Assembly (NCBI GenBank): GCA_963636305.1
Contig: CAVHKB010000001.1
Location: forward strand, 1 to 42,018
Direction of reading: 5' to 3'
Length of the DNA: 42,018 nt
DNA from: Prevotella sp. P5-108
Lineage (GTDB): Bacteria; Bacteroidota; Bacteroidia; Bacteroidales; Paludibacteraceae
How positions within the stretch are numbered: the first letter of the stretch is position 1; each line of letters starts with the position of its first letter. The notes beneath the pieces are model-generated. The model worked only from the letters and a program-made list of their open reading frames with translations. It was not told the origin of the DNA and ran no database searches. A program made the translations under genes and the position numbers. Shown here piece after piece: positions 1-42,018 of the stretch.

Positions 1-26
1 TTCTGGATTTCTGGGGGATACATTCA

Positions 27-54
27 ATTAACAATTAATAATTAACAATTAATA
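27..54. repeat. Perfect 14-bp tandem duplication ATTAACAATTAATA x2 (contains TTAACAATT, the reverse complement of the AATTGTTAA motif)
   Basis: Read directly: 27-40 and 41-54 are identical. Confidence 0.9.
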
Positions 55-84
55 TACAGGGAATGATACGGCCTCTTTGGCGGA

Positions 85-172
85 GGGGAGAAAATAGGGA
101 AGAGGCAGGGAAGAGGTGGGGGAGAAGTATGGAAGAAGAATGGAAGAGGTAAGGAAGAAGTGGGGTGGGGAA
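85..172. repeat. Eight degenerate 11-bp tandem units, about 90 percent purine on the + strand (core GGAAGAGG)
   Basis: Units: GGGGAGAAAAT AGGGAAGAGGC AGGGAAGAGGT GGGGGAGAAGT ATGGAAGAAGA ATGGAAGAGGT AAGGAAGAAGT GGGGTGGGGAA. Confidence 0.85.
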
Positions 173-270: not shown

Positions 271-1506
271 ATGAAAAAACATCTCTTTATAGTGTGTGCC
301 GTTATGGTTCTGTCGGGCATTTCACCTGCTATGGGCGCCGTATGTAAGACGGGTTTGGAAGTTCTGCGAGAGCAGGGTTTTTCGATATTGGCGGGTAAGC
401 GAGTGGGCTTGTGTACGAATCCGACAGGCATAGACAGTGCTTTGAAATCGACGGTGGATATATTTTACGAGTCACCTTCTGTGAATTTGGTAGCGTTGTT
501 TGCGCCAGAGCATGGCGTTCGTGGAGATGTGTATGCGGGAGACCAAGTGGAGACCTTTACGGACAGCAAGACAGGTGTGCCGGTCTATTCTATATTCGGT
601 AAGACACGCAAACCGACAGCGGATATGCTGCGTGATGTGGATGTGGTGGTGTATGACATACAAGATATCGGTTGCCGTTCGTACACATTCATTTCCACTA
701 TGGGGAACTTGATGGAGGCGTGTGCGGAGTATGACAAAGAGTTTGTGGTGTTGGACCGTCCGAATCCGTTGGGCGGACTGAAGATAGAGGGGAATGTGGT
801 GGAGGAAGGTTACTTCTCGTTTGTATCGCAGTTCAAGATACCCTACTTGTATGCACAGACCTGCGGTGAGTTGGCTACGATGTTGAATGAGGAGAACTAT
901 CTTGGCAGTCGCTGCAGACTTACGGTTGTGAAGATGGAGGGTTGGCACAGGAATATGACTTGGCAGGACACGGGTCTGCCGTGGGTGGCAGCGTCGCCTC
1001 ATATTCCTTTTGCGGAGTCAGCGTTCTTTTATCCTGTTACAGGCATATTCGGAGAGTTGGGTTATTTCAACATAGGCGTAGGATATACTATGCCTTTTGA
1101 ACTGATAGGCGTGCCTTGGGCAGATGCGGACAGTCTTGCTATGGCGTTGAATGCGTTGCAGTTGCCTGGTGTCCGTTTCCGTCCTATTACATACAAGCCT
1201 TTTTATTCGGCTCACAAAGGTGTGTTGTGCGGTGGTGTTCAGATATACCTGACGGATTACGAGCAGGCTCATTTGTCGGATATACAGTTTCTTATCGTAC
1301 AGGAGTTGATGCGGATGTATCCGTACAAGGATGTTTTCGGCTTGTGTGACCAGAGTCGTTTCGGGATGTTTGACAAGGTGTGCGGTAGCCGTCGTATCCG
1401 AGAGTCGTTCGGTGTGCGTTACCGTTGGGAGGATGTGAGGTCGTACTGGTACAAGGATGTGGAATCGTACAGGCAGATGTCGTCAAAATACTATTTTTAT
1501 GATTGA
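271..1506 (+). CDS. Secreted DUF1343-family protein (YbbC/NamZ-like exo-beta-N-acetylmuramidase family)
   Basis: 411-aa ORF with an N-terminal signal peptide (MKKHLFIVCAVMVLSGISPAMG). Family hallmarks GLCTNPTG and FAPEHGVRGD. TACCTTTG -7 box lies 50 nt upstream. Confidence 0.8.
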   Translation: MKKHLFIVCAVMVLSGISPAMGAVCKTGLEVLREQGFSILAGKRVGLCTNPTGIDSALKSTVDIFYESPSVNLVALFAPEHGVRGDVYAGDQVETFTDSKTGVPVYSIFGKTRKPTADMLRDVDVVVYDIQDIGCRSYTFISTMGNLMEACAEYDKEFVVLDRPNPLGGLKIEGNVVEEGYFSFVSQFKIPYLYAQTCGELATMLNEENYLGSRCRLTVVKMEGWHRNMTWQDTGLPWVAASPHIPFAESAFFYPVTGIFGELGYFNIGVGYTMPFELIGVPWADADSLAMALNALQLPGVRFRPITYKPFYSAHKGVLCGGVQIYLTDYEQAHLSDIQFLIVQELMRMYPYKDVFGLCDQSRFGMFDKVCGSRRIRESFGVRYRWEDVRSYWYKDVESYRQMSSKYYFYD

Positions 1507-4318
1507 GCATTTATTACCGACATCTCCCGCCCCGTTGGGCTATGGTGTCGACAGTGGGAGCAAGGACTTCATTCAGCGGTTGACATGGGGAACGGATGCG
1601 GGTTGTTACCGTCTTATCCCTGAAGAGGTGTTCCACCCTGCCGATGAGGGTGAGGTCCGCGAGTTGTTGTCGTATGCCAGGCGCGAGGGGAAGCACATCA
1701 CTTTTCGTGCTGCGGGAACATCGTTGTCGGGTCAGGCTTTGTCGGATTCGTTGTTAGTGGTAGTGGGAAAGCGTTGGGAGAACTATGCAGTGTTGGACGG
1801 AGGGAAGCGTATTTGTATGCAACCGGGCTTGACAGGAGGTCGTGTGAACGAGATATTGGCGCCTTACGGGACTTACTTTACGCCTGATCCGGCATCGCTG
1901 AAGAGTGCGATGGTAGGTGGAATCGTGAACAACAATGCTTCCGGTATGTCTTGTGGCACACACGCTAATTCGTACCGTATGCTTGATAGCGTGCGTATAT
2001 TGTTGGCTGACGGGACCTTGTTGGACACCTCGGACAGCGGTTCGAAGGAGGCATTTCGGTTGTCGCATCGTGAGTTCTTGGAGAAGATTGAGTTGTTGCG
2101 TGACCGGACGCGTGCGAATGCGGCATTGTCGGAACTTATCCGCAGGAAGTATGCGATCAAGAATGTGACGGGTTTGACGATATTGCCTTTTGTGGAGTAT
2201 GATGATCCGTTTGATATAATTGCTCACTTGATAGTGGGAAGCGAGGGGACATTGGCTTTCTTGTCGGAGGTAGTGATGCGTACGGCACCTGTCCCTGGTT
2301 ACAGTGCGTCGGCGTTAATGCTGTTTGCCACGACCGAGATGGCATGCCAAGCGGTTATCCGTCTGAATCGTACGAATGCGGTGTCGGCGGCAGAGTTTTT
2401 TGACAGGAAAGCGATGGCGGTGTTGGAGGACAGTTTTCCGGAGTTGAAAGGCAGACCTGCCGATGCGTCAGCGGTGTTGGTACGGGTGGAGGATTGCAGT
2501 GAGAGCGAGATGGAGCGGAAGATAGAGCAGGTGGAAAAGGTGTTGGAGGGAATAGAGGCAGAAGGCAAGCAGTTTACGACAGACAAGGAGTTGGTAGCCA
2601 AATACTGGGCGATGCGTTCGGGTATATTTCCGGCAGTGGGAGCGACCCGTCGTGTGGGTACGACCTGTTTGATAGAGGATATTGCATTCCCTATAGAGCA
2701 TTTGGCAGAGGCGACAGCGGATTTGCAGGCGTTGTTCAAGGAGCATCGTTATCCGGACGCAGTGATATACGGTCATGCATTGGAGGGTAATTATCATTTT
2801 ATCTTGAATCAATGTTTCAACACGCAGGAGAGTATCGCCCAGTATGACAGTATGATGCGTGCGGTTGTGTCGTTGGTGGTGGACAAGTATCACGGTTCGT
2901 TGAAGGCGGAACATGGGACTGGGCGTAATATGGCGCCTTTTGTACGGAAGGAGTGGGGAGATGATGCGTACGAGTTAATGTGCGAGGTGAAACGGCTATT
3001 CGACCCTGATAATATACTGAATCCGGGAGTTATCTTCAACGAAGACAGTGAGAGTTATTTGCGGTACTTGAAGCCATTGCCGTCGGTTCATCCGATGGTG
3101 GACAAGTGTATAGAGTGCGGTTTCTGTGAAGTGAACTGCGTATCGTGCGGCTTTGCTCTTTCCTCAAGAGGTCGTATCATCGTTCAACGGGAGATTGCCC
3201 GTTTGCTTTCGGAGGGGAAAAAAGGAGAGGCGCAGCGGCTACAGAAGGCGTTCCGACATATCGGTAAGGACCTATGCGCGGGGGACGGGTTGTGTTCTAC
3301 CTCTTGTCCGATAGGGATAAATGTGGGCGAGTACATTCATTTGATTCGAGAACGGGAGTTGTCGGCAACAGGCAGGGCGGCGGGTCGTTTTGCGGCTCAT
3401 CATTTTGCGGCAGTGGGAGGTTCGGTCTCGTCTATCCTATTGATAGCGGGCTTTGCGCAGAAGGTGTTGGGTAACGAGTGGATGTTGAGGGTGTGCAAGG
3501 GGCTACGCTATGCATCGGGTAAGACGATGCCATTGTGGACGCCGTCGATGCCTCACAGGACATGTAGCGGAAAGATAGTGCAATCGGCTTCGGTTCATAC
3601 GGACAAGTCGCTGAAAGTTGTTTATTTCCCATCTTGTCTGAACCAGCGTATGGGGTTGGCTGAAGGTGATCCGTCGAAGCGACCGACGATGGGTGATATG
3701 GTAGAGTTGCTGCATAAGGCGGGCTATGATGTGCTGTTCCCGAAGGATATGAAGCGGTTATGTTGCGGAATGATATGGGAGAGCAAGGGTATGGCAGATG
3801 TTGCGGATGAGAAAGCCTTTGAGTTGGAACAGGCACTGCGAGAGGCAAGCAGTGATGGGCAATATCCTGTGTTGTGCGACCAGAGTCCGTGCCTATATCG
3901 TATGCGCCGCACAATGAAAGGATTGCAACTGTATGAGCCAGCGGAATTTATCGAGCGTTTTCTGTTAAGCAAGTTGGATATTACGCCGTTGGAAGAGCCT
4001 ATCATGCTGCATATTACTTGTTCTATGCGTAAGATGGGGTTGGGAGATACGATATTGCGTGTGGCACGGCAATGCGCTCGGGAGGTGATTGTGCCGTCAG
4101 GCATCGGCTGTTGTGGTTTTGCCGGCGACAAAGGCTTTACAGACCCTGAACTGAACGATTGGGCATTGCGGCACTTGCGTGAGCAGTGTGAAGAGGTGCA
4201 TGCAACGGTAGGTATAAGCAATTCCAGGACTTGCGAGATAGGTCTATCGTCGCATGCAGGTGTTCCGTATATGAATATAGCCTGGCTCGTTAACAAAGTA
4301 AGCAAACCAAGGAAATGA
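1499..4318 (+). CDS. FAD-binding (GlcD/PCMH-type) plus 4Fe-4S and CCG cysteine-rich domain oxidoreductase, YdiJ / D-lactate (D-2-hydroxyacid) dehydrogenase-like
   Basis: ORF track gives 1457..4318. I moved the start to ATG 1499 (MIEHLL...), which overlaps the upstream stop as ATGATTGA. Motifs: FRAAGTSLSGQA (FAD domain), CIECGFCEVNC (4Fe-4S), CCGMIWE and GCCGFAGDKGF (CCG domains). Confidence 0.8.
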   Translation: MIEHLLPTSPAPLGYGVDSGSKDFIQRLTWGTDAGCYRLIPEEVFHPADEGEVRELLSYARREGKHITFRAAGTSLSGQALSDSLLVVVGKRWENYAVLDGGKRICMQPGLTGGRVNEILAPYGTYFTPDPASLKSAMVGGIVNNNASGMSCGTHANSYRMLDSVRILLADGTLLDTSDSGSKEAFRLSHREFLEKIELLRDRTRANAALSELIRRKYAIKNVTGLTILPFVEYDDPFDIIAHLIVGSEGTLAFLSEVVMRTAPVPGYSASALMLFATTEMACQAVIRLNRTNAVSAAEFFDRKAMAVLEDSFPELKGRPADASAVLVRVEDCSESEMERKIEQVEKVLEGIEAEGKQFTTDKELVAKYWAMRSGIFPAVGATRRVGTTCLIEDIAFPIEHLAEATADLQALFKEHRYPDAVIYGHALEGNYHFILNQCFNTQESIAQYDSMMRAVVSLVVDKYHGSLKAEHGTGRNMAPFVRKEWGDDAYELMCEVKRLFDPDNILNPGVIFNEDSESYLRYLKPLPSVHPMVDKCIECGFCEVNCVSCGFALSSRGRIIVQREIARLLSEGKKGEAQRLQKAFRHIGKDLCAGDGLCSTSCPIGINVGEYIHLIRERELSATGRAAGRFAAHHFAAVGGSVSSILLIAGFAQKVLGNEWMLRVCKGLRYASGKTMPLWTPSMPHRTCSGKIVQSASVHTDKSLKVVYFPSCLNQRMGLAEGDPSKRPTMGDMVELLHKAGYDVLFPKDMKRLCCGMIWESKGMADVADEKAFELEQALREASSDGQYPVLCDQSPCLYRMRRTMKGLQLYEPAEFIERFLLSKLDITPLEEPIMLHITCSMRKMGLGDTILRVARQCAREVIVPSGIGCCGFAGDKGFTDPELNDWALRHLREQCEEVHATVGISNSRTCEIGLSSHAGVPYMNIAWLVNKVSKPRK

Positions 4319-4791
4319 ATGCAGATTTTTGCGAGATTGAGCGCAAGTTTTTAGTCAATGACGACTCTTTCAAGACGATGGCAACAGCGAAAAAGGTGCT
4401 ATCGCAAGGCTATCTGTCGCGTGACCCGAAGCGTACGGTGCGCGTACGGATATGCGACGACAAGGGCTATCTAACGATAAAAGGAGAGACGGATGCCGCA
4501 GGGTTGAGCCGTTTTGAATGGGAGAAAGAGATACCCAAAACGGAGGCACAAGCCTTGTTGCGTATATGTTTACCGACGGTGATAGAGAAAGAGCGTTATA
4601 TTGTGCCCTACAAAGGCATGGTATTTGAGGTAGATGTATTCCATGGGATACATGAGGGGCTTGTACTGGCAGAGGTGGAACTACGGTCGGAGACGCAAGC
4701 CGTGACCTTACCTCCTTTTATCGGAAAGGAAGTGACTGGCAATCAGAGATACTACAATTCCTATCTTTCACAGAAGAGTGATAATAACTAA
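4315..4791 (+). CDS. CYTH domain protein (triphosphate tunnel metalloenzyme family)
   Basis: 158 aa with the N-terminal EIERKFLV (ExExK) signature. ATG 4315 overlaps the upstream TGA (ATGA), consistent with translational coupling. Confidence 0.8.
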   Translation: MNADFCEIERKFLVNDDSFKTMATAKKVLSQGYLSRDPKRTVRVRICDDKGYLTIKGETDAAGLSRFEWEKEIPKTEAQALLRICLPTVIEKERYIVPYKGMVFEVDVFHGIHEGLVLAEVELRSETQAVTLPPFIGKEVTGNQRYYNSYLSQKSDNN

Positions 4792-4803
4792 CACAATACA
4801 GCA

Positions 4804-6255
4804 ATGATATTTAACAATACCGATTTAGAACAACTTGCTCAACAGGGTGTATCGGTGGAGCAAGTAGAGCAACAACTGCAATCTTTCCGCACGGGATTTC
4901 CTGCCTTAGACATTGTTTCCGCTGCCACACTCGGTAACGGGATTCTTTGTCCCACCGATGTAGAAGCGAAGTCCTATCTATCTGCGTGGGACGAATATCT
5001 CAAGGAGCAGCATACTATCCTGAAGTTTGTCCCCGCCTCTGGTGCAGCCAGTCGTATGTTCAAGGATTTGTTCGCCTTTCGTGACGGCGGCGAAGAAACT
5101 GACTTCATCAAAGTGTTCTTTGCCCATCTTTCTTCGTTCGCTTTCTATCCCGAGTTGCAACAACGGGTGAACGACAAAGGCGTGCAGAACGATAAGCGTG
5201 CCATCGTGAGTGTTCTCTTGGACGATATGCAATACGGTCATCTGCCTAAAGGATTGCTACTCTTTCACCGCTACCCTGACGAGGCCCGCACACCGGCATT
5301 GGAACATCTTGTGGAGGGTGCGCTCTATGCTGCCAACCAGCAGCGTAATGTTAATCTGCACTTTACGATATCACCCGAGCATCGTTCCCTCTTCGAAAGA
5401 CACATCGCTCAATACCAAGAGGCGTATGCAAGCCGTTTCGATGTACACTATTCCATCTCTTTCTCGGAGCAGAAATCCTCCACCGACACTATCGCTGCGG
5501 ACAGCGACGGTAATCCTTTCCGTGATGCGAATGGCCGTCTGGTCTTCCGTCCCGGAGGACATGGCGCTCTCATCGAGAACCTCGCCGAACAAGATGCAGA
5601 CATCGTATTTCTCAAGAATATCGACAATGTTGTACCCGACCGTTTGAAAGAACCGACGGTTTACTACAAGCGTCTTCTGGCTGGCGTACTCGTGCATATC
5701 CAGCAACAGATTTTCGCCTTTCTCCGTGAGTTGGAGAACCCATGCTCGCAGGAACGCCTCGAAGAGATTCGCGCTTTCATCGAGAACAATCTCTGCTGTC
5801 ATCTGGCAGGTCCTACCACTGCAGCAACGCTTCGCAACAAACTGAATAGGCCTATCCGTGTATGCGGCATGGTTCGTAACTTGGGTGAACCTGGCGGTGG
5901 TCCGTTTCTCGTCAAGAATGCTGATGGCAGTGTCCAATGTCAGATCTTGGAAAGTTCGCAAATAGCCGACAAGTCCCTGATGCAGAAAGCAACACACTTC
6001 AATCCTGTCGATCTCGTATGTGGTCTGCGCGATTATCAAGGCAAGACCTTCCCCCTCAAGCAGTTCGTCGATGCCAATACCGCATTCATCTCGCAGAAGT
6101 CCAAAGACGGACGCGCACTCCAAGCACTCGAACTGCCTGGACTGTGGAACGGTGCTATGGCTGACTGGAATACCTTGTTCGTCGAAGTTCCTATCGAGAC
6201 TTTTAACCCCGTGAAAACCGTTAACGACCTCCTGCGGCCCGAACACAAGGCGTAA
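4804..6255 (+). CDS. DUF4301-family protein, by eye a UDP-sugar pyrophosphorylase (UGP/UAP)-like nucleotidyltransferase fold
   Basis: 483 aa with no signal peptide. Motifs resemble sugar-1-P nucleotidyltransferases: FVPASGAASRMFK (aa 75-87), LPKGLLLFH, RPGGHGAL, FLKNIDNV. Confidence 0.65.
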   Translation: MIFNNTDLEQLAQQGVSVEQVEQQLQSFRTGFPALDIVSAATLGNGILCPTDVEAKSYLSAWDEYLKEQHTILKFVPASGAASRMFKDLFAFRDGGEETDFIKVFFAHLSSFAFYPELQQRVNDKGVQNDKRAIVSVLLDDMQYGHLPKGLLLFHRYPDEARTPALEHLVEGALYAANQQRNVNLHFTISPEHRSLFERHIAQYQEAYASRFDVHYSISFSEQKSSTDTIAADSDGNPFRDANGRLVFRPGGHGALIENLAEQDADIVFLKNIDNVVPDRLKEPTVYYKRLLAGVLVHIQQQIFAFLRELENPCSQERLEEIRAFIENNLCCHLAGPTTAATLRNKLNRPIRVCGMVRNLGEPGGGPFLVKNADGSVQCQILESSQIADKSLMQKATHFNPVDLVCGLRDYQGKTFPLKQFVDANTAFISQKSKDGRALQALELPGLWNGAMADWNTLFVEVPIETFNPVKTVNDLLRPEHKA

Positions 6256-6935
6256 TGCACCTGCCGATGTACAAAGCCTTTTTCTTCGATATGGATGGTG
6301 TGTTGTTCGACTCTATGCCCCACCATGCAAAAGCCTGGGACATGGTCATGAGCAAGTATGCACTCGACTTCAACGCACACGACACCTACCTGCAGGAAGG
6401 ACGCACCGGTCAAGATGTCATCGAAGAGTGTTACCGAAGGAAATATCATACCTCGCCACCCGAGTCATTGGTCTGGCAAATCTATCACGAGAAGACCGAC
6501 TTGTTCCATCAGTTGGGGGAAACACAACCCGTACAAGGCGTAGCAGAGGTGCTGTATTTCCTTAAGAACCTCCCCTCTTCCCCGCAGTTATGGATCGTAA
6601 CGGGTTCGGGACAGCAGACCCTCTTCGCGCAATTGGAGCAATCTTTCCCCTCCGTCTTTCAGCGCGACAAGATGGTCACCGCCTACGATGTCCGTCACGG
6701 CAAACCCAATCCCGAACCCTATCTGTGCGCCTTCCGACAGTCTGGCTGCAAGAAAGAAGAGTGCATGGTCATCGAGAACGCACCCCTCGGCGTCCGCTCT
6801 GGCAAAGGGGCGGGACTCTTCACTGTCGCCGTCAACACAGGCATCCTCAAGCCCGAAGATCTGTCGCACGAAGGTGCCGATAAGGTCTTCAATTCAATGG
6901 CCGACCTACTCCTGTTCCTGAAAACGCTGTTCTGA
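6255..6935 (+). CDS. HAD-IA hydrolase, beta-phosphoglucomutase/sugar-phosphatase family
   Basis: Motif I FFFDMDGVLFDS, then HGKPNPEPY and ENAPLGVRSGKGAG. The start overlaps the upstream stop (TAATG). ATG 6267 (MYKAFFFDMDG) is an alternative start. Confidence 0.8.
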   Translation: MHLPMYKAFFFDMDGVLFDSMPHHAKAWDMVMSKYALDFNAHDTYLQEGRTGQDVIEECYRRKYHTSPPESLVWQIYHEKTDLFHQLGETQPVQGVAEVLYFLKNLPSSPQLWIVTGSGQQTLFAQLEQSFPSVFQRDKMVTAYDVRHGKPNPEPYLCAFRQSGCKKEECMVIENAPLGVRSGKGAGLFTVAVNTGILKPEDLSHEGADKVFNSMADLLLFLKTLF

Positions 6936-8966: not shown

Positions 8967-9048
8967 CTCTCCCCTGCAATTGTTAAAATCCAATGAACGG
9001 TACTACACGCCGCCAAGCCCAATAAATACTATACATCACAAAGCATTT

Positions 9049-9114
9049 ATATACGATTCATATAGGACGAATATAGGACGAATATAGGATGAACATACAA
9101 AAAACATACAATCG
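9049..9114 (+). repeat. Copy A of the ATATAGGACGA-type 11-bp phased array (six units)
   Basis: Units: ATATACGATTC ATATAGGACGA ATATAGGACGA ATATAGGATGA ACATACAAAAA ACATACAATCG. The AATTGTTAAAA motif lies at 8978-8988, 60 nt upstream. Confidence 0.9.
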
Positions 9115-9145
9115 CCCTCCGCGCAATTTAACTTTTGCATACCGT

Positions 9146-9176
9146 TTCTTAATGGTTCTTAATGGCTTATTAACGG
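9146..9176. repeat. Short tandem repeat TTCTTAATGG x2 plus variant CTTATTAACGG in the DsbD-gene leader
   Basis: Read directly at 9146-9155, 9156-9165 and 9166-9176. Confidence 0.8.
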
Positions 9177-9211
9177 TCAATCTTTCGGCAACCAAACAGT
9201 GAAGCAGTGTT

Positions 9212-17815: not shown

Positions 17816-18123
17816 CGACTAATTCTTGATACTGGCAAAAAAGATAGACCTTTGTGTTCGGAAAAAATGTCCGTAGGTTCTTTTTTCTGCTTCCCGACCC
17901 TCAAAATAGAAGACAAATCCCTCCGTCCCCGCAAGCAAAAAAACTCGTCCTTCCCTCTCAATATCTGCGACCTGATGTTGTCCTTCCGAAATCTTTGGAA
18001 ACGCAAAGCGAATTGTTAAAAAATAGATGTATTTCTCCTGGCGAAAACATTCCGTTTTCCCTCCCGTTCCCTCACGGTCGCCCTCCGCAATGCCCCGTAA
18101 ACACTGACTGTTTCAAAGGTTTT

Positions 18124-18200
18124 ATATACCATTTATATAGGACGAATATAGGACGCATATAGGAAGAACATAGAATCCGTATCGGAAACATACAAAAAAC
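18124..18200 (+). repeat. Copy B of the ATATAGGACGA-type 11-bp phased array (seven units)
   Basis: Units: ATATACCATTT ATATAGGACGA ATATAGGACGC ATATAGGAAGA ACATAGAATCC GTATCGGAAAC ATACAAAAAAC. AATTGTTAA lies at 18011-18019 upstream, with C-rich CCCTC phased segments in between. Confidence 0.9.
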
Positions 18201-18227
18201 AAGGGGATCTAAAATATAAATCCCCTT
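18193..18227 (-). terminator. Rho-independent terminator downstream of panB (potentially bidirectional)
   Basis: 8-bp stem AAGGGGAT/ATCCCCTT (18201-18208 / 18220-18227) with an 11-nt loop. On the minus strand it is followed by GTTTTTTG. On the plus strand it is followed by TTTTAT. Confidence 0.65.
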
Positions 18228-18346
18228 TTATAAAACGGCTTGTTTCAACGCCTCTTGCTGCGGTACTCGTCCGTCAATGCCGTGCCAGTCGTACTGCGGT
18301 TTTCGCCTGCGTCTGCGATATGCCCGGCGTCCGCGTTCCCGCCGCG

Positions 18347-26678: not shown

Positions 26679-26845
26679 AACATTCTTACAATCCCCACCA
26701 AATTTTATTGCATAAATCCACGCTCGTGCCTCCTGCTTCTTTCAATCGGAATTCCACCAACCCGCCTTCCCCCTCTTCCCTCCCCGTCCGCTCCCTCTCA
26801 CTGCGCTTTTTTTGTCGTATTTGTATCGAGGTTTTCCCGTACCGT

Positions 26846-26889
26846 AACCGAAGCATAACCGAAGCATAACCGAAGCATAACCGAAGCAT
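26846..26889. repeat. Perfect 11-bp tandem repeat AACCGAAGCAT x4
   Basis: Read directly at 26846-56, 26857-67, 26868-78 and 26879-89. Confidence 0.95.
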
Positions 26890-26907
26890 TAGCGCAAAAC
26901 AACCACT

Positions 26908-26940
26908 CCAAAAACATTCCAATAACACGCCAATAACAAT
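26908..26940. repeat. Three 11-bp units CCAAAAACATT CCAATAACACG CCAATAACAAT
   Basis: Read directly. It lies 19 nt downstream of the AACCGAAGCAT array in the same intergenic region. Confidence 0.8.
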
Positions 26941-27098
26941 CCGCTGACCTATCTTCTGCGCACCGCTATGCAAGCGTGGTCGCAAAGGGGGAATGTCCCC
27001 AATCTCTTGATTCCCTTCGGTTTCCTGTCCCAATTCGTTTTATCGCCATTTCCCATTGCAATTTTTAGCCAAATGTTGTGCTGTTTCCAAAATCTTTG

Positions 27099-41840: not shown

Positions 41841-41859
41841 TTCATCTCGTTCCCTACAC

Positions 41860-41889
41860 AAAAAGGCTGCCCCAAAGGCAGCCTTTTTT
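41860..41889 (+). terminator. Rho-independent terminator after the 842-aa secreted protein gene
   Basis: GGCTGCC-CCAAA-GGCAGCC hairpin (41865-41883) flanked by an A-run and followed by TTTTTT (41884-41889), 20 nt after the stop codon. Confidence 0.85.
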
Positions 41890-41979
41890 GTTCCTCACCC
41901 CTCGCCTGCTAATTGTTACCTGTTAATTGCTCCCTTACCTCCGCCCACCCAACTATTTACTACCAATCCCAAACGATTT

Positions 41980-42018
41980 ATATAGGTTTTATATACGATC
42001 TATATAGGACGCATATAG
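41980..42018 (+). repeat. Copy C of the ATATAGGACGA-type 11-bp phased array, truncated by the window end
   Basis: Units: ATATAGGTTTT ATATACGATCT ATATAGGACGC ATATAG... AATTGTTAC (41911-41919) and TGTTAATTG (41921-41929) lie upstream. Confidence 0.85.

Follow-up and report, generated by a model that had tools for sequence, protein, structure and literature searches.

A dispersed repeat with an 11-bp-phased array in the intergenic mosaics of three related gut Bacteroidales

The stretch of 42,018 nucleotides analysed here (the window, which is the whole of contig C1 of the Prevotella sp. P5-108 metagenome-assembled genome, G000) carries copies of an intergenic repeat which very probably belong to a lineage-specific, DNA-level, dispersed non-coding family, present in about 100-190 copies per genome across three related uncultured gut Bacteroidales species. 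Each element consists of a C-rich arm of ~55 nt, followed by 4-6 ATATAGGAnnn units phased at exactly 11 bp, and then by a CA-rich tail. Judged by its sequence surroundings, this arm-array-tail repeat is one module of BIME-like intergenic mosaics. As a whole explanation, we lean slightly towards a DNA-level, BIME-like repeat which would have spread in a strand-specific manner, would be subject to homogenisation, and might be a candidate binding platform. Among the classes raised by the first-pass annotation, a REP-like element or protein-binding array gives the best reading, in which the binding is putative.

The first-pass annotation had placed three same-strand copies, A, B and C, in the window and had taken them for one composite intergenic family. 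The sequences are indeed present at the coordinates given, and the family is real, with an order of parts common to the three copies. In a repeat search of the window the copies align with each other over 78 nt at 74-78% identity, TRF assigns a period of 11 with 0% indels to all of them, and a search with the 18-mer TATAGGACGMATATAGGA, tolerating 3 mismatches at most, gives 6 matches in the window where 0.04 are expected. Their parts, together with a related piece at the window start, are as follows.

25-165, minus strand: inverted mosaic piece at the window start (sequence, TRF)
8978-8988, plus strand: AT-rich upstream motif of copy A, AATTGTTAAAA (sequence, motif statistics)
9002-9048, plus strand: C-rich left arm of copy A, ending in CGCCGCCAAGCCCAATAAATACTATACATCACAAAGCATTT (BLAST-repeated part, arm consensus)
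9049-9114, plus strand: array of copy A, six 11-bp units (TRF, pattern matches, sequence)
9111-9130, plus strand: second, truncated arm start of copy A, ATCGCCCTCCGCGCAATTTA (compared with the arm consensus CTnCCCTCCGCCAAGCCC)
18011-18034, plus strand: AT-rich block of copy B, AATTGTTAAAAAATAGATGTATTT, with AATTGTTAA at 18011-18019 (sequence)
18035-18076, plus strand: C/T-rich, G-poor filler of copy B (sequence)
18077-18123, plus strand: left arm of copy B, GTCGCCCTCCGCAATGCCCCGTAAACACTGACTGTTTCAAAGGTTTT (BLAST-repeated part, consensus)
18124-18200, plus strand: 11-bp array of copy B (TRF, conservation across the three species)
41910-41929, plus strand: AT-heptad module of copy C, TAATTGTTACCTGTTAATTG, a mosaic partner module (sequence)
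41930-41979, plus strand: left arm of copy C, CTCCCTTACCTCCGCCCACCCAACTATTTACTACCAATCCCAAACGATTT (sequence, window repeat search)
41980-42018, plus strand: array of copy C, ATATAGGTTTT, ATATACGATCT, ATATAGGACGC and ATATAG..., cut by the contig end

The units of copy A run in the order ATATACGATTC, ATATAGGACGA twice, ATATAGGATGA, ACATACAAAAA and ACATACAATCG, with intact units in the centre and decayed ones at the edges (TRF 92% matches, 0 indels). Those of copy B are ATATACCATTT, ATATAGGACGA, ATATAGGACGC, ATATAGGAAGA, the decayed ACATAGAATCC, GTATCGGAAAC and ATACAAAAAAC, and the panB terminator hairpin at 18201-18229 abuts this array. The AT-heptad module of copy C comes after a terminator at 41856-41889, and the same module adjoins arrays on other contigs as well. 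When the copy A region (9002-9120) was used as a BLAST query, more than 80 other loci were matched in the sister species G272 and G273; with copy B as the query, the repeated part extends from about 18056/18081 to 18175/18201. Here the first-pass annotation has to be corrected. The sequence TCGCCCTCCGC on the 3' side of the copy A array is the beginning of a second, truncated arm, and this indicates, as far as the sequence can tell, a tandem or mosaic arrangement. The supposed fourth, inverted copy at the window start is a related minus-strand mosaic piece with another array unit: it has AT heptads at 25-54, an arm-start-like CTCCCCTCCGCCAAAGAGG when 72-90 is read in reverse complement, and at 95-165 an 11-bp array whose unit is TAGGGAAGAGG; no ATATAGGA array is visible in positions 1-165. 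For the gene beside this piece, an exact look-up of the protein found no recorded counterpart.

The whole repeat measures ~110-230 bases. On the left, homology between copies breaks off sharply some 50-59 nt ahead of the array, which makes the repeat a defined unit. In some copies a leader reaches about -113 via CT-rich filler and an AT block; thus, in copy B, TTGTTAAA begins exactly 111 nt 5' of the array start. The AATTGTTAA-type motif ascribed to all window copies stands at a fixed distance of -111 solely within a sub-family to which copy B belongs (9 of 53 elements in G000 and 16 of 83 in G273), and the motif of copy A, AATTGTTAAAA, lies 69 nt ahead of its array. Across copies the top strand is poor in G, at 10-13% from -160 to -1 and 6-9% in the tails. 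Period 11 is also the modal tandem-repeat period of the genome, with 159 rows where periods 10 and 12 have 41 and 59. ATATAGGAnnn arrays of at least 3 units carry TAG in all three frames when read from the unit.

How far does the repeat extend beyond the window? In G000 (2.38 Mb, 89% complete) the 18-mer pattern has 243 matches genome-wide, corresponding to ~95 arrays, against 0/1 for the reversed control. The core is therefore repeated elsewhere in the genome, clearly contrary to the outcome that the first-pass annotation had named as refuting it, and there are still more arrays in the two sister species, of which G273 is 98% complete. Within G000, 55 of the 95 arrays lie no more than 300 bp from a contig end, and both ends of the window are among them; the repeat breaks this assembly, and contigs end in it. 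In a set of 267 genomes from the genus, the pattern abounds only in G000 (236 matches), G272 (468) and G273 (384), and the same composite was found in CAVEIE01 and CAVEFV01. Other congeners have unrelated 11-bp array families, including a clade with AGGATATACGT arrays. In JGI metagenomes the flank-specific pattern gave 0 matches and the array pattern 1 short contig. No match to the repeat was found in viral contigs, plasmids or phages, and an origin from such elements was rejected on this ground. The repeat is also a resident of spacers: 85 of 88 arrays in G273 are intergenic, one overlaps a called ORF, and two lie at contig edges.

The positions of the elements are conserved among the species. 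A same-strand G273 element was found at the orthologous site for 30 of the 32 G000 elements with a mapped flank, it being noted that orthologous sites of the three species are non-independent samples. In the opposite direction, 12 G273 arrays map to a single array-bearing G000 contig and 1 to a contig without an array; 52 map to G000 contig breaks, and in 40 of these 52 cases array units are present at the contig ends. Copies A and B themselves occur at orthologous sites in G272 and G273, and copy B is identical in five conspecific assemblies, with no insertion polymorphism there. The spacer between nadE and the DsbD-like gene is 245 bp long in the window and 20-100 bp in congeners which keep both genes adjacent, although these junctions are not alignable at ~70% identity. 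One site empty in G000 lies in a rearranged region of variable gene content; no clean empty site at nucleotide resolution, target duplication or recent insertion polymorphism was seen.

The sequences at these conserved sites behave differently from the sites themselves. The orthologue is the closest copy at just 9 of 30 loci; elsewhere paralogues within G000 are far closer, at distances down to 0.03, while the flanks of such overwritten copies are unalignable (0.35-0.46 identity). About half of the copies carry species-specific, homogenised sequence, and ordered sets of units are species-specific too. At the other, 'frozen' loci the arm and the array are both 0.70 identical against 0.57-0.66 for the flanks, a margin so small that it does not, overall, speak for purifying selection, or with it for function.

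A strong polarity is superimposed on this. The strand carrying ATATAGGA coincides with the locally C-rich strand in 60 of 76 cases in G273 (p=4e-7) and 60 of 74 in G000 (p=6e-8), and the occupied spacers are spread too evenly, at ~10-13 kb, with a spacing CV of 0.59 where the null gives 0.875 +/- 0.088 (P<1/3000) and none less than 3 kb apart where 17-19% are expected, both properties being those of MAG contigs not placed relative to the replication origin or terminus. Once skew is in the model, gene orientation adds nothing (LR p=0.38, G273). The window itself follows the rule: its GC skew changes sign near 4.8 kb, and the piece at 1-165, inverted relative to copies A-C, sits in the part of positive GC skew. 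A KOPS-like reading of the bottom strand of the arm, GCGGAGGG, found no support, since outside mosaics the word is polar by no more than 8:3 or 19:8; the 8-mers with the strongest polarity are common words rich in G and T.

The mosaics are completed by runs of AT heptads (TTAATTG) and by a REP hairpin with a GTAG head, TGTAGAGCCATAGCGTGCTATGGCTCTCAAC, which is absent from the window. REPs located no more than 500 bp from an array are on the same strand as the array in all 66 cases, 30 of 30 in G000 and 36 of 36 in G273, and in 21 of 23 cases the GTAG strand of the REP is the C-rich strand. Such hairpins flank some arrays in direct orientation (on C156, C19 and C141), and most simple copies, including A and B, lack them.

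Tests against known classes gave largely negative answers. That the arrays are not CRISPRs, as the first-pass annotation had maintained, is borne out by contiguous 11-bp units with 0% indels, as opposed to repeats of 24-48 bp with unique spacers. Its view that terminal inverted repeats are missing agrees with a window repeat search in which no inverted arm/tail pair appeared, and none of the tails contains the left end in reverse complement (GGCGGAGGG...); a MITE with inverted ends was rejected accordingly. Neither an inverted repeat nor the imperfect palindrome of 20-40 bp, headed by GTAG or CGTC, that marks a REP was found in the arm-array-tail element. Folding gave MFE z-scores of -0.46 and -0.36 on the two strands, no structure above shuffled sequence, and a search of the window against Rfam returned no match at gathering score, the sole match (E=0.79) lying outside the element; a structured RNA or known RNA family was rejected on these grounds. 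The consensus shows, by eye, no TAnnTTTG box on either strand, nor a pair of TAnnTTTG with a -33 TTTG, and a recognisable promoter within the element was rejected on its sequence, real promoter boxes lying further downstream at variable distance. As to enzymes, neither G000 nor G273 gave a match to Y1/RAYT (PF01797), and searches for the TnpB and IS110 families were likewise negative, in MAGs where repeat-flanked genes often stay unassembled. G272 has one Y1 gene of 160 aa with no GTAG hairpins beside it, and across the genus IS200-like Y1 genes occur only here and there (36 of 267 genomes). An autonomous parent with inverted array pairs was also considered, and the two candidates in G273 proved to be spurious weak matches inside genes.

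By what route might such a family have arisen? Evidently it expanded in the common ancestor of the three species into spacers between transcription units, and vertical inheritance has kept it at fixed sites ever since. All modules of a mosaic are on one strand, the locally C-rich one, which would be the lagging strand if the usual rule of a G-rich leading strand holds. In that case the strand with GTAG and ATATAGGA would be on the leading-strand template, opposite to the simple expectation from IS608. Strand-specific spread, probably via single-stranded DNA or the replication fork, as with REP/BIME and IS200/IS605 elements, might account for this polarity, and we consider the chances of such a mechanism evenly balanced. 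Simple copies such as A and B have stayed 'frozen' and drifted along with their orthologues, while paralogous sequence has been replacing that of mosaic copies, which would be the work of gene conversion or of re-insertion into the same spacer; overwriting of this kind leads to a species' own consensus and ordered unit set. In the duplex, the 4-6 identical 8-bp boxes of an array could all lie on one helix face, a geometry that we propose tentatively, and the array might then be a putative cooperative platform for a DNA-binding or architectural protein, a suggestion that is likewise made with considerable reserve. The even spacing of ~10-13 kb could reflect such a role, and equally target immunity or recombinational loss of close pairs. 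A more far-reaching version, to which we give little credence, makes the arrays sites of chromosomal architecture: a putative nucleoid- or partition-type protein would bind them cooperatively every ~10-13 kb, and the sites, oriented to replication, would mark domain boundaries or give a readable polarity, KOPS/parS-like in function although derived from a domesticated repeat, with each lineage having its own 11-bp word and protein.

Other explanations place the function of the arrays elsewhere, or deny it. Response regulators of the OmpR/PhoB type recognise direct repeats spaced by 10-11 bp, and the 11-bp repeats could be tandem boxes for one transcription factor, for instance of this winged-helix type, in which case the ~100 copies would form a repeat-seeded regulon. 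Phasing at exactly 11 bp without indels is what such an operator array would show; promoter-bearing divergent spacers are the most occupied (32%, as compared with 15% for convergent and 7.7% for tandem ones), and the array of copy B is the best-conserved stretch of its spacer across the three species. We find this explanation improbable, however, as arrays stand anywhere between 39 and 915 bp from the downstream start codon, no distance being favoured, orientation tracks strand composition rather than the neighbouring gene, the downstream genes are unrelated in function (DsbD-like, lepA-like GTPase, tRNA cluster and others), and 12 copies lie in promoterless convergent spacers. Moreover, homology of the 55-nt arms from copy to copy points to common descent and not to convergent evolution of operators. 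If the element acted as RNA instead, its G-poor, C/A-rich, unstructured top strand might be a Rho-loading (rut-like) terminator or insulator, or a GGA sponge for an RNA-binding protein, and the base composition (G 6-13%, C 30-42% from -160 to +80), the missing secondary structure in folding, the TAG triplets in all three frames of arrays of at least 3 units, and the 32:16 excess of elements co-oriented with genes in tandem spacers are all in its favour. Yet orientation is untied to the upstream gene (44 of 85 co-oriented), terms for gene orientation add nothing beyond strand skew, one third of the copies in tandem spacers are antisense to both neighbours, and there is no Rfam family; an RNA-level role is thus also improbable in our estimation.

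It might also be that the elements are functionless relics of an extinct mobile element, with no binder at all, their polarity coming from the mechanism of insertion and their spacing from target immunity or from recombinational loss of close pairs. The frozen loci, which show no excess conservation, are as this would have it, and so are the undetected transposases (Y1/RAYT in G000 and G273; TnpB, IS110), the decay of edge units, the drift of unit number between orthologues, and the unrelated 11-bp array families of congeners, which are expected from the turnover of selfish repeats. On the other hand, site occupancy is retained at ~94% although the flanking genes are only 80-88% identical between species, and near-identical paralogues in G000 speak for ongoing exchange of sequence and not just decay. 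In copy B the array is ~87% invariant across the three species against ~55% for the arm, and the modal period of 11 hints at a constraint on helical phase. We therefore regard pure relics as unlikely, though worth keeping in view beside the BIME-like repeat with a candidate binding platform.

How does the repeat compare with known systems? Modules of BOX elements fold into stable structures of RNA or DNA, with a unit of 45 bp, and are regarded as MITE-like. The BOX elements of Streptococcus pneumoniae (boxA-boxB(n)-boxC; PMC3049150) resemble the array repeat in modularity, in variable central units between conserved ends and in their roughly 100 copies, whereas the array repeat is unstructured (z about -0.4) and its unit is 11 bp long. 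Cyanobacterial STRR/heptamer arrays are likewise dispersed short-period tandem units between genes, and (TTAATTG)n is of that type, but the units and arms of the array repeat differ from them in sequence. The 11-bp iterons of plasmid R1 parC, bound by ParR, and PhoB/PhoP boxes are helically phased direct repeats, and phased boxes on the same face are the classical geometry for cooperative protein binding. The array repeat shares with them 4-6 short boxes at an exact 11-bp period on one helix face; those arrays, however, are single loci beside their cognate genes or promoters, while here ~100 are dispersed, with homologous arms and no evident partner gene. A PATE derived from IS200/IS605 would have sub-terminal hairpins in direct orientation on one active strand, no TIR or TSD, and a strand bias relative to replication. 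Here all modules are co-oriented, the strand polarity is strong, and some arrays have flanking hairpins in direct orientation; most simple copies are nevertheless hairpin-free, no TnpA was found, and the sign of the polarity is the reverse of that under the IS608 rule if the leading strand is the G-rich one. In IS200/IS605 transposition the lagging-strand template is preferred, according to the passage of PMC3333891 that cites Ton-Hoang 2010.

The closest likenesses are to REP/BIME elements, dispersed repeats well known in Proteobacteria, and to BrickBuilt. With REP/BIME and REPIN-RAYT systems of E. coli and Pseudomonas (PMC3333891; PMC3733652; bioRxiv 10.1101/2021.07.10.451892) the family shares high copy number, intergenic (extragenic) location, species specificity, clustering into mosaics with other motifs, conserved spacers and within-genome homogenisation, and the GTAG-headed palindrome is a partner module of the array repeat. 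The array module itself differs in having no palindrome, and at its core is an 11-bp minisatellite in helical phase; where REPINs and BIMEs combine REPs in inverted pairs, the modules here are all in direct orientation, and RAYT was not found in two of the three genomes. REPIN/RAYT populations are long-lived and vertically inherited (bioRxiv 10.1101/2021.07.10.451892), and the REPs of Bacteroidetes in a 2013 survey were of the CGTC type only, with none of the GTAG type (PMC3733652). BrickBuilt, a minisatellite MITE of Porphyromonas gingivalis (PMC4596501), is also of the Bacteroidales, and shows the same layout of a leader, a spacer-less tandem block and a tail, with intergenic position, restricted hosts and multiple copies. 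Its unit is 23 nt long, each genome bears 19 copies, the ends are small inverted repeats and promoter activity is present (PMC4596501), whereas the array repeat, compared by description, has an 11-nt unit, ~95-190 copies, and neither inverted ends nor a recognisable promoter box. Besides BrickBuilt, our literature search for REP/BIME-type repeats in Bacteroidales gave almost nothing; the present repeat is uncatalogued.

What, finally, does such a family mean for the genomes that bear it? At a practical level, the repeat explains the fragmentation of these MAGs, and it could mark the clade. The family also unites four properties rarely shown together: conservation of sites along with homogenisation of sequence, strict co-orientation of modules, a polarity of ~80%, and an over-regular spacing. 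Two questions thereby become accessible to testing in a lineage of gut bacteria: by what means repeats of this sort spread when no transposase is in sight, and whether the chromosome is structured by them.

The three plus-strand copies that the first-pass annotation had placed in the window (A, B and C, listed below) stand at those coordinates, and they belong to a family that reaches far beyond it. Tandem Repeats Finder (TRF) gives all three a period of 11 with 0% indels, they align with one another over 78 nt at 74-78% identity, and the 18-mer TATAGGACGMATATAGGA has six matches in the window where 0.04 would be expected. In the genome of the window (G000), a metagenome-assembled genome (MAG) of 2.38 Mb in 260 contigs and 89% complete, of which the window is the entire contig C1, the pattern of the array matches 243 times, against 0 and 1 in the reversed control. 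About 95 arrays have at least two units, and 55 of them lie within 300 bp of a contig end; thus the element breaks the assembly. Repeat modules are found at both ends of the window as well.

8978-9114, plus strand: copy A, in the spacer between nadE and a DsbD-like gene; period 11 at 9060-9097
9146-9177: 10-bp tandem TTCTTAATGG x3 (TRF), shortly after copy A, within the leader of the DsbD-like gene
18011-18200, plus strand: copy B, beside panB; period 11 at 18135-18173
18201-18229: hairpin AAGGGGATCTAAAATATAAATCCCCTT, directly abutting the decayed end of the copy-B array and kept in all three species that carry the family
41911-42018, plus strand: copy C; period 11 at 41975-42009
1-165, inverted: mosaic piece at the window start
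95-165, 26845-26889, 26907-26942: 11-bp arrays of other units (TAGGGAAGAGG, TAACCGAAGCA, TCCAATAACAA)
Outside the window, G000 contigs C141, C156, C19, C52, C96, C124 and C1/C2 of the sister species G273: GTAG-headed hairpin TGTAGAGCCATAGCGTGCTATGGCTCTCAAC
Outside the window, G273 C1:291672-291714, C2:97160-97200 and other loci: 22-bp repeat GGTGTGACGAGGTATATACAAAAGTGTGACGAAA
Outside the window, loci L212-L231 in the congeners G130, G167, G183, G202 and G241: AGGATATACGT array element

The element has a definite anatomy. Anchored alignments give a C-rich left arm (consensus aaaaCTnCCCTCCGCCAAGCCCnnTAAATACTAcctnTTCAAAGGwTTT), then the array of 11-bp units, then a CA-rich tail, and homology between copies starts fairly sharply 50-59 nt before the array. 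The units follow a fixed order in G000 (ATATAcGATTT, ATATAGGACGC, ATATAGGACGA, ATATAGGATGA, ATATAGGAAGA, then decayed ACATAnAAAAA units), which rules out a homogeneous microsatellite, and G273 has an order of its own; therefore the array has been copied as part of the whole element, even though the number of units drifts between orthologous arrays. A TTGTTAAAWAATA-like block stands exactly 111 nt upstream in about one-fifth of the copies, copy B among them; with this block the unit reaches about 230 bp, and it is in this sub-family that the composite order described earlier for the repeat holds. The top strand is poor in G (6-13% from -160 to +80 around the array). After several ATATAGGA arrays in G273, GGTGTGACGAGGTATATACAAAAGTGTGACGAAA replaces the usual tail and may be a further mosaic module. 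The hairpin beside copy B resembles a bidirectional intrinsic terminator for panB, because it has T-runs on both strands.

Many copies are joined into larger mosaics with AT-heptad runs (TTAATTGTTAAyTGTTAATT) and with the GTAG-headed, REP-like palindrome TGTAGAGCCATAGCGTGCTATGGCTCTCAAC, of which G000 holds 229-240 copies in its 2.38 Mb. These modules are co-oriented: hairpins within 500 bp of an array are on its strand in 30 of 30 cases in G000 and 36 of 36 in G273, usually on the tail side and in a fixed register. The hairpin often sits inside a longer module of about 75 bp. A survey of REPs in 2013 lists only the CGTC type, and no GTAG type, for Bacteroidetes (PMC3733652), and our literature search found no description of GTAG-type REPs in Bacteroidales or of the array family.

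The family is restricted to one clade. Among 267 species-level genomes of the genus, the array occurs in bulk only in G000 (236 matches) and the sister species G272 (468) and G273 (384); a few pattern matches appear in other congeners (six in G050, three in G278), and 16 genomes from other families of the order have none. A scan of named GTDB genomes turned up many occurrences of this composite in two records, CAVEIE01 ('Bacteroidaceae bacterium') and CAVEFV01. The latter, which is G272, is titled 'Firmicutes bacterium CAG:95' at NCBI while GTDB places it in the genus of the window; the orthologous loci (L034, L041 and others) and the repeat that it has in common with the window make the title evidently a mislabel, and the fault probably lies in the label or in part of the bin. 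Spacers of other congeners hold arrays of other units with periods of 7, 9, 11, 15 and 21 bp, and another clade has its own dispersed 11-bp array, ..ATTACGT(AGGATATACGT)3-5AGGATAA.., with 24-51 matches per genome and arms that are not homologous to those of our element. In G273 itself period 11 is modal among tandem repeats (159 rows vs 41 for period 10 and 59 for period 12), other units form period-11 arrays in about 30 spacers, and the TAACCGAAGCA unit of the window recurs in C1 and C5 as well as in C33 of G000.

How old are the individual sites? Between G000 and G273 the flanking genes share 80-88% identity, and for 30 of the 32 G000 elements with a mapped flank the orthologous G273 site has an element on the same strand. 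In the other direction, 12 G273 arrays with both flanks mapped fall on a single G000 contig with an array and one on a contig without it, in a rearranged region; a further 52 coincide with breaks between G000 contigs, and in 40 of these cases the contig ends carry array units. Both G272 and G273 have copies A and B at the orthologous positions, while in more distant congeners that keep nadE beside the DsbD-like gene the two genes are only 20-100 bp apart. Thus, the family expanded in the ancestor of the clade and has been inherited in place. Its sequences have nevertheless evolved in concert, since at only nine of 30 loci is the orthologue the nearest copy; elsewhere it resembles the element no more than a random copy does, paralogues in G000 are near-identical (distance down to 0.03), and the spacer DNA flanking such overwritten copies is unalignable between species (0.35-0.46 identity). 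These distances and flank identities separate simple, frozen copies such as A and B from mosaic copies, which are probably still undergoing homogenisation, either through gene conversion or because elements insert again into the same spacers. Conservation of the element at frozen loci exceeds that of its flanks by a small margin only (0.70 vs 0.57-0.66). The copy-B array is the best conserved stretch of its spacer across the three species and is identical in five conspecific assemblies.

Gene context was taken from 1.08 Mb of well-assembled G273, with genes called crudely as longest ORFs, which is adequate only for flanking orientation. Of 88 arrays there, one per 12 kb, 85 are intergenic, one overlaps a called ORF and two are at contig edges. 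Arrays occupy 32% of divergent, 15% of convergent and 7.7% of tandem spacers, and those in tandem spacers point the same way as the genes in a ratio of 32:16 (p=0.03). They are also evenly spaced: the 83 occupied spacers have a median distance of 10.6 kb and a coefficient of variation (CV) of 0.59, whereas random sets of equally many spacers, drawn with weights for spacer type and with operon-internal gaps either kept or excluded, give 0.87-0.92 +/- 0.09, and 3000 draws did not once yield so low a value. Occupied spacers never lie less than 3 kb apart, where 17-19% would be expected to do so. When period-11 arrays of other units are added the CV is 0.61 and the mean 10 kb, and in the window such arrays of any unit stand at 0.1, 9.1, 18.1, 26.9 and 42.0 kb. 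A structural role, target immunity during the expansion and recombinational loss of close pairs are all possible causes of this spacing, which was measured on MAG contigs of one clade, where orthologous sites in sister genomes are not independent.

The element is, in addition, polar with respect to the DNA strand. With GC skew computed from coding sequence only and balanced for gene orientation, the C-rich strand is the one that bears ATATAGGA in 60 of 76 cases in G273 (p=4e-7; 33 of 39 at |skew| of 0.05 or more) and in 60 of 74 in G000 (p=6e-8). Skew alone gives a likelihood-ratio chi-square of 31 in G273, after which gene orientation adds nothing (p=0.38). The GTAG strand of the hairpins is biased likewise (21 of 23), while the word TCCTATAT shows the opposite bias outside mosaics (3:14 vs 137:19 inside), and among ordinary 8-mers the most polar ones are G/T-rich, which fits skew of the replication type. 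On the plus strand of the window the skew has a value of +0.3 as far as about 4.5 kb and lies between -0.1 and -0.28 from 5 kb, independently of the direction of the genes; the negative part contains copies A-C, every one on the plus strand, and the positive part contains the mosaic at 1-165, which is inverted. The flip at 4500-5300 falls inside a co-directional, tightly coupled operon (271-6935) and is therefore not an effect of gene orientation; it may mark a replication terminus, the breakpoint of an inversion or the site of an old fusion. If the G-rich strand is the leading one, the top strand of the element is the lagging strand. Strand-specific behaviour is known for single-stranded-DNA transposons of the IS200/IS605 type and has been proposed for REP/BIME (PMC3333891), and the array element may similarly have spread by a replication-coupled, single-stranded-DNA mechanism. 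We regard this as evenly balanced between right and wrong, because the polarity has the opposite sign to that of the simple IS608 rule and the strands were assigned by skew, not from a mapped origin or terminus.

To which known family could the element belong? The array has no spacers and so is not CRISPR, and the element has no inverted ends, both as the first-pass annotation had it. There was no match in Rfam or among IMG/VR viral contigs, PLSDB plasmids and GenBank phages, and folding energy is no better than that of shuffled sequence (z -0.46 for the top strand and -0.36 for the bottom, 40 copies). The consensus contains no recognisable Bacteroidetes-type promoter box; downstream genes have their TAnnTTTG boxes beyond the element, at varying distances of 39-915 bp. 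In behaviour it comes closest to REP/BIME and REPIN populations, with which it shares a high copy number, intergenic position, mosaic structure, species-specific sequence and vertical persistence (PMC3333891; PMC3733652; bioRxiv 10.1101/2021.07.10.451892), but unlike REP/BIME it has no palindrome of its own, and no cognate RAYT was recognised. A search for Y1/RAYT (PF01797) genes detected none in G000 or G273; G272 has one Y1 gene (160 aa) on a short contig with no adjoining GTAG hairpins, IS200-like Y1 genes are sporadic in the genus (36 of 267 genomes), and TnpB and IS110 domains were found in none of the three genomes. Such absences are weak evidence, since MAGs easily lose repeat-flanked genes. 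In architecture the closest is, by its description, BrickBuilt of Porphyromonas gingivalis, also in Bacteroidales, with a leader, a spacer-less minisatellite and a tail, always intergenic; its unit is 23 nt instead of 11, its copy number differs, and our element lacks its inverted ends (PMC4596501). The array element is thus an abundant, uncatalogued repeat family, similar to REP, BIME and BrickBuilt but a member of none. Its exact 11-bp phasing resembles that of the R1 parC iterons and Pho boxes, which are cooperative binding arrays, though at single loci. Tentatively, then, and with the balance rather against it, the array might serve as a platform that binds protein on one face of the helix, possibly with an architectural role.
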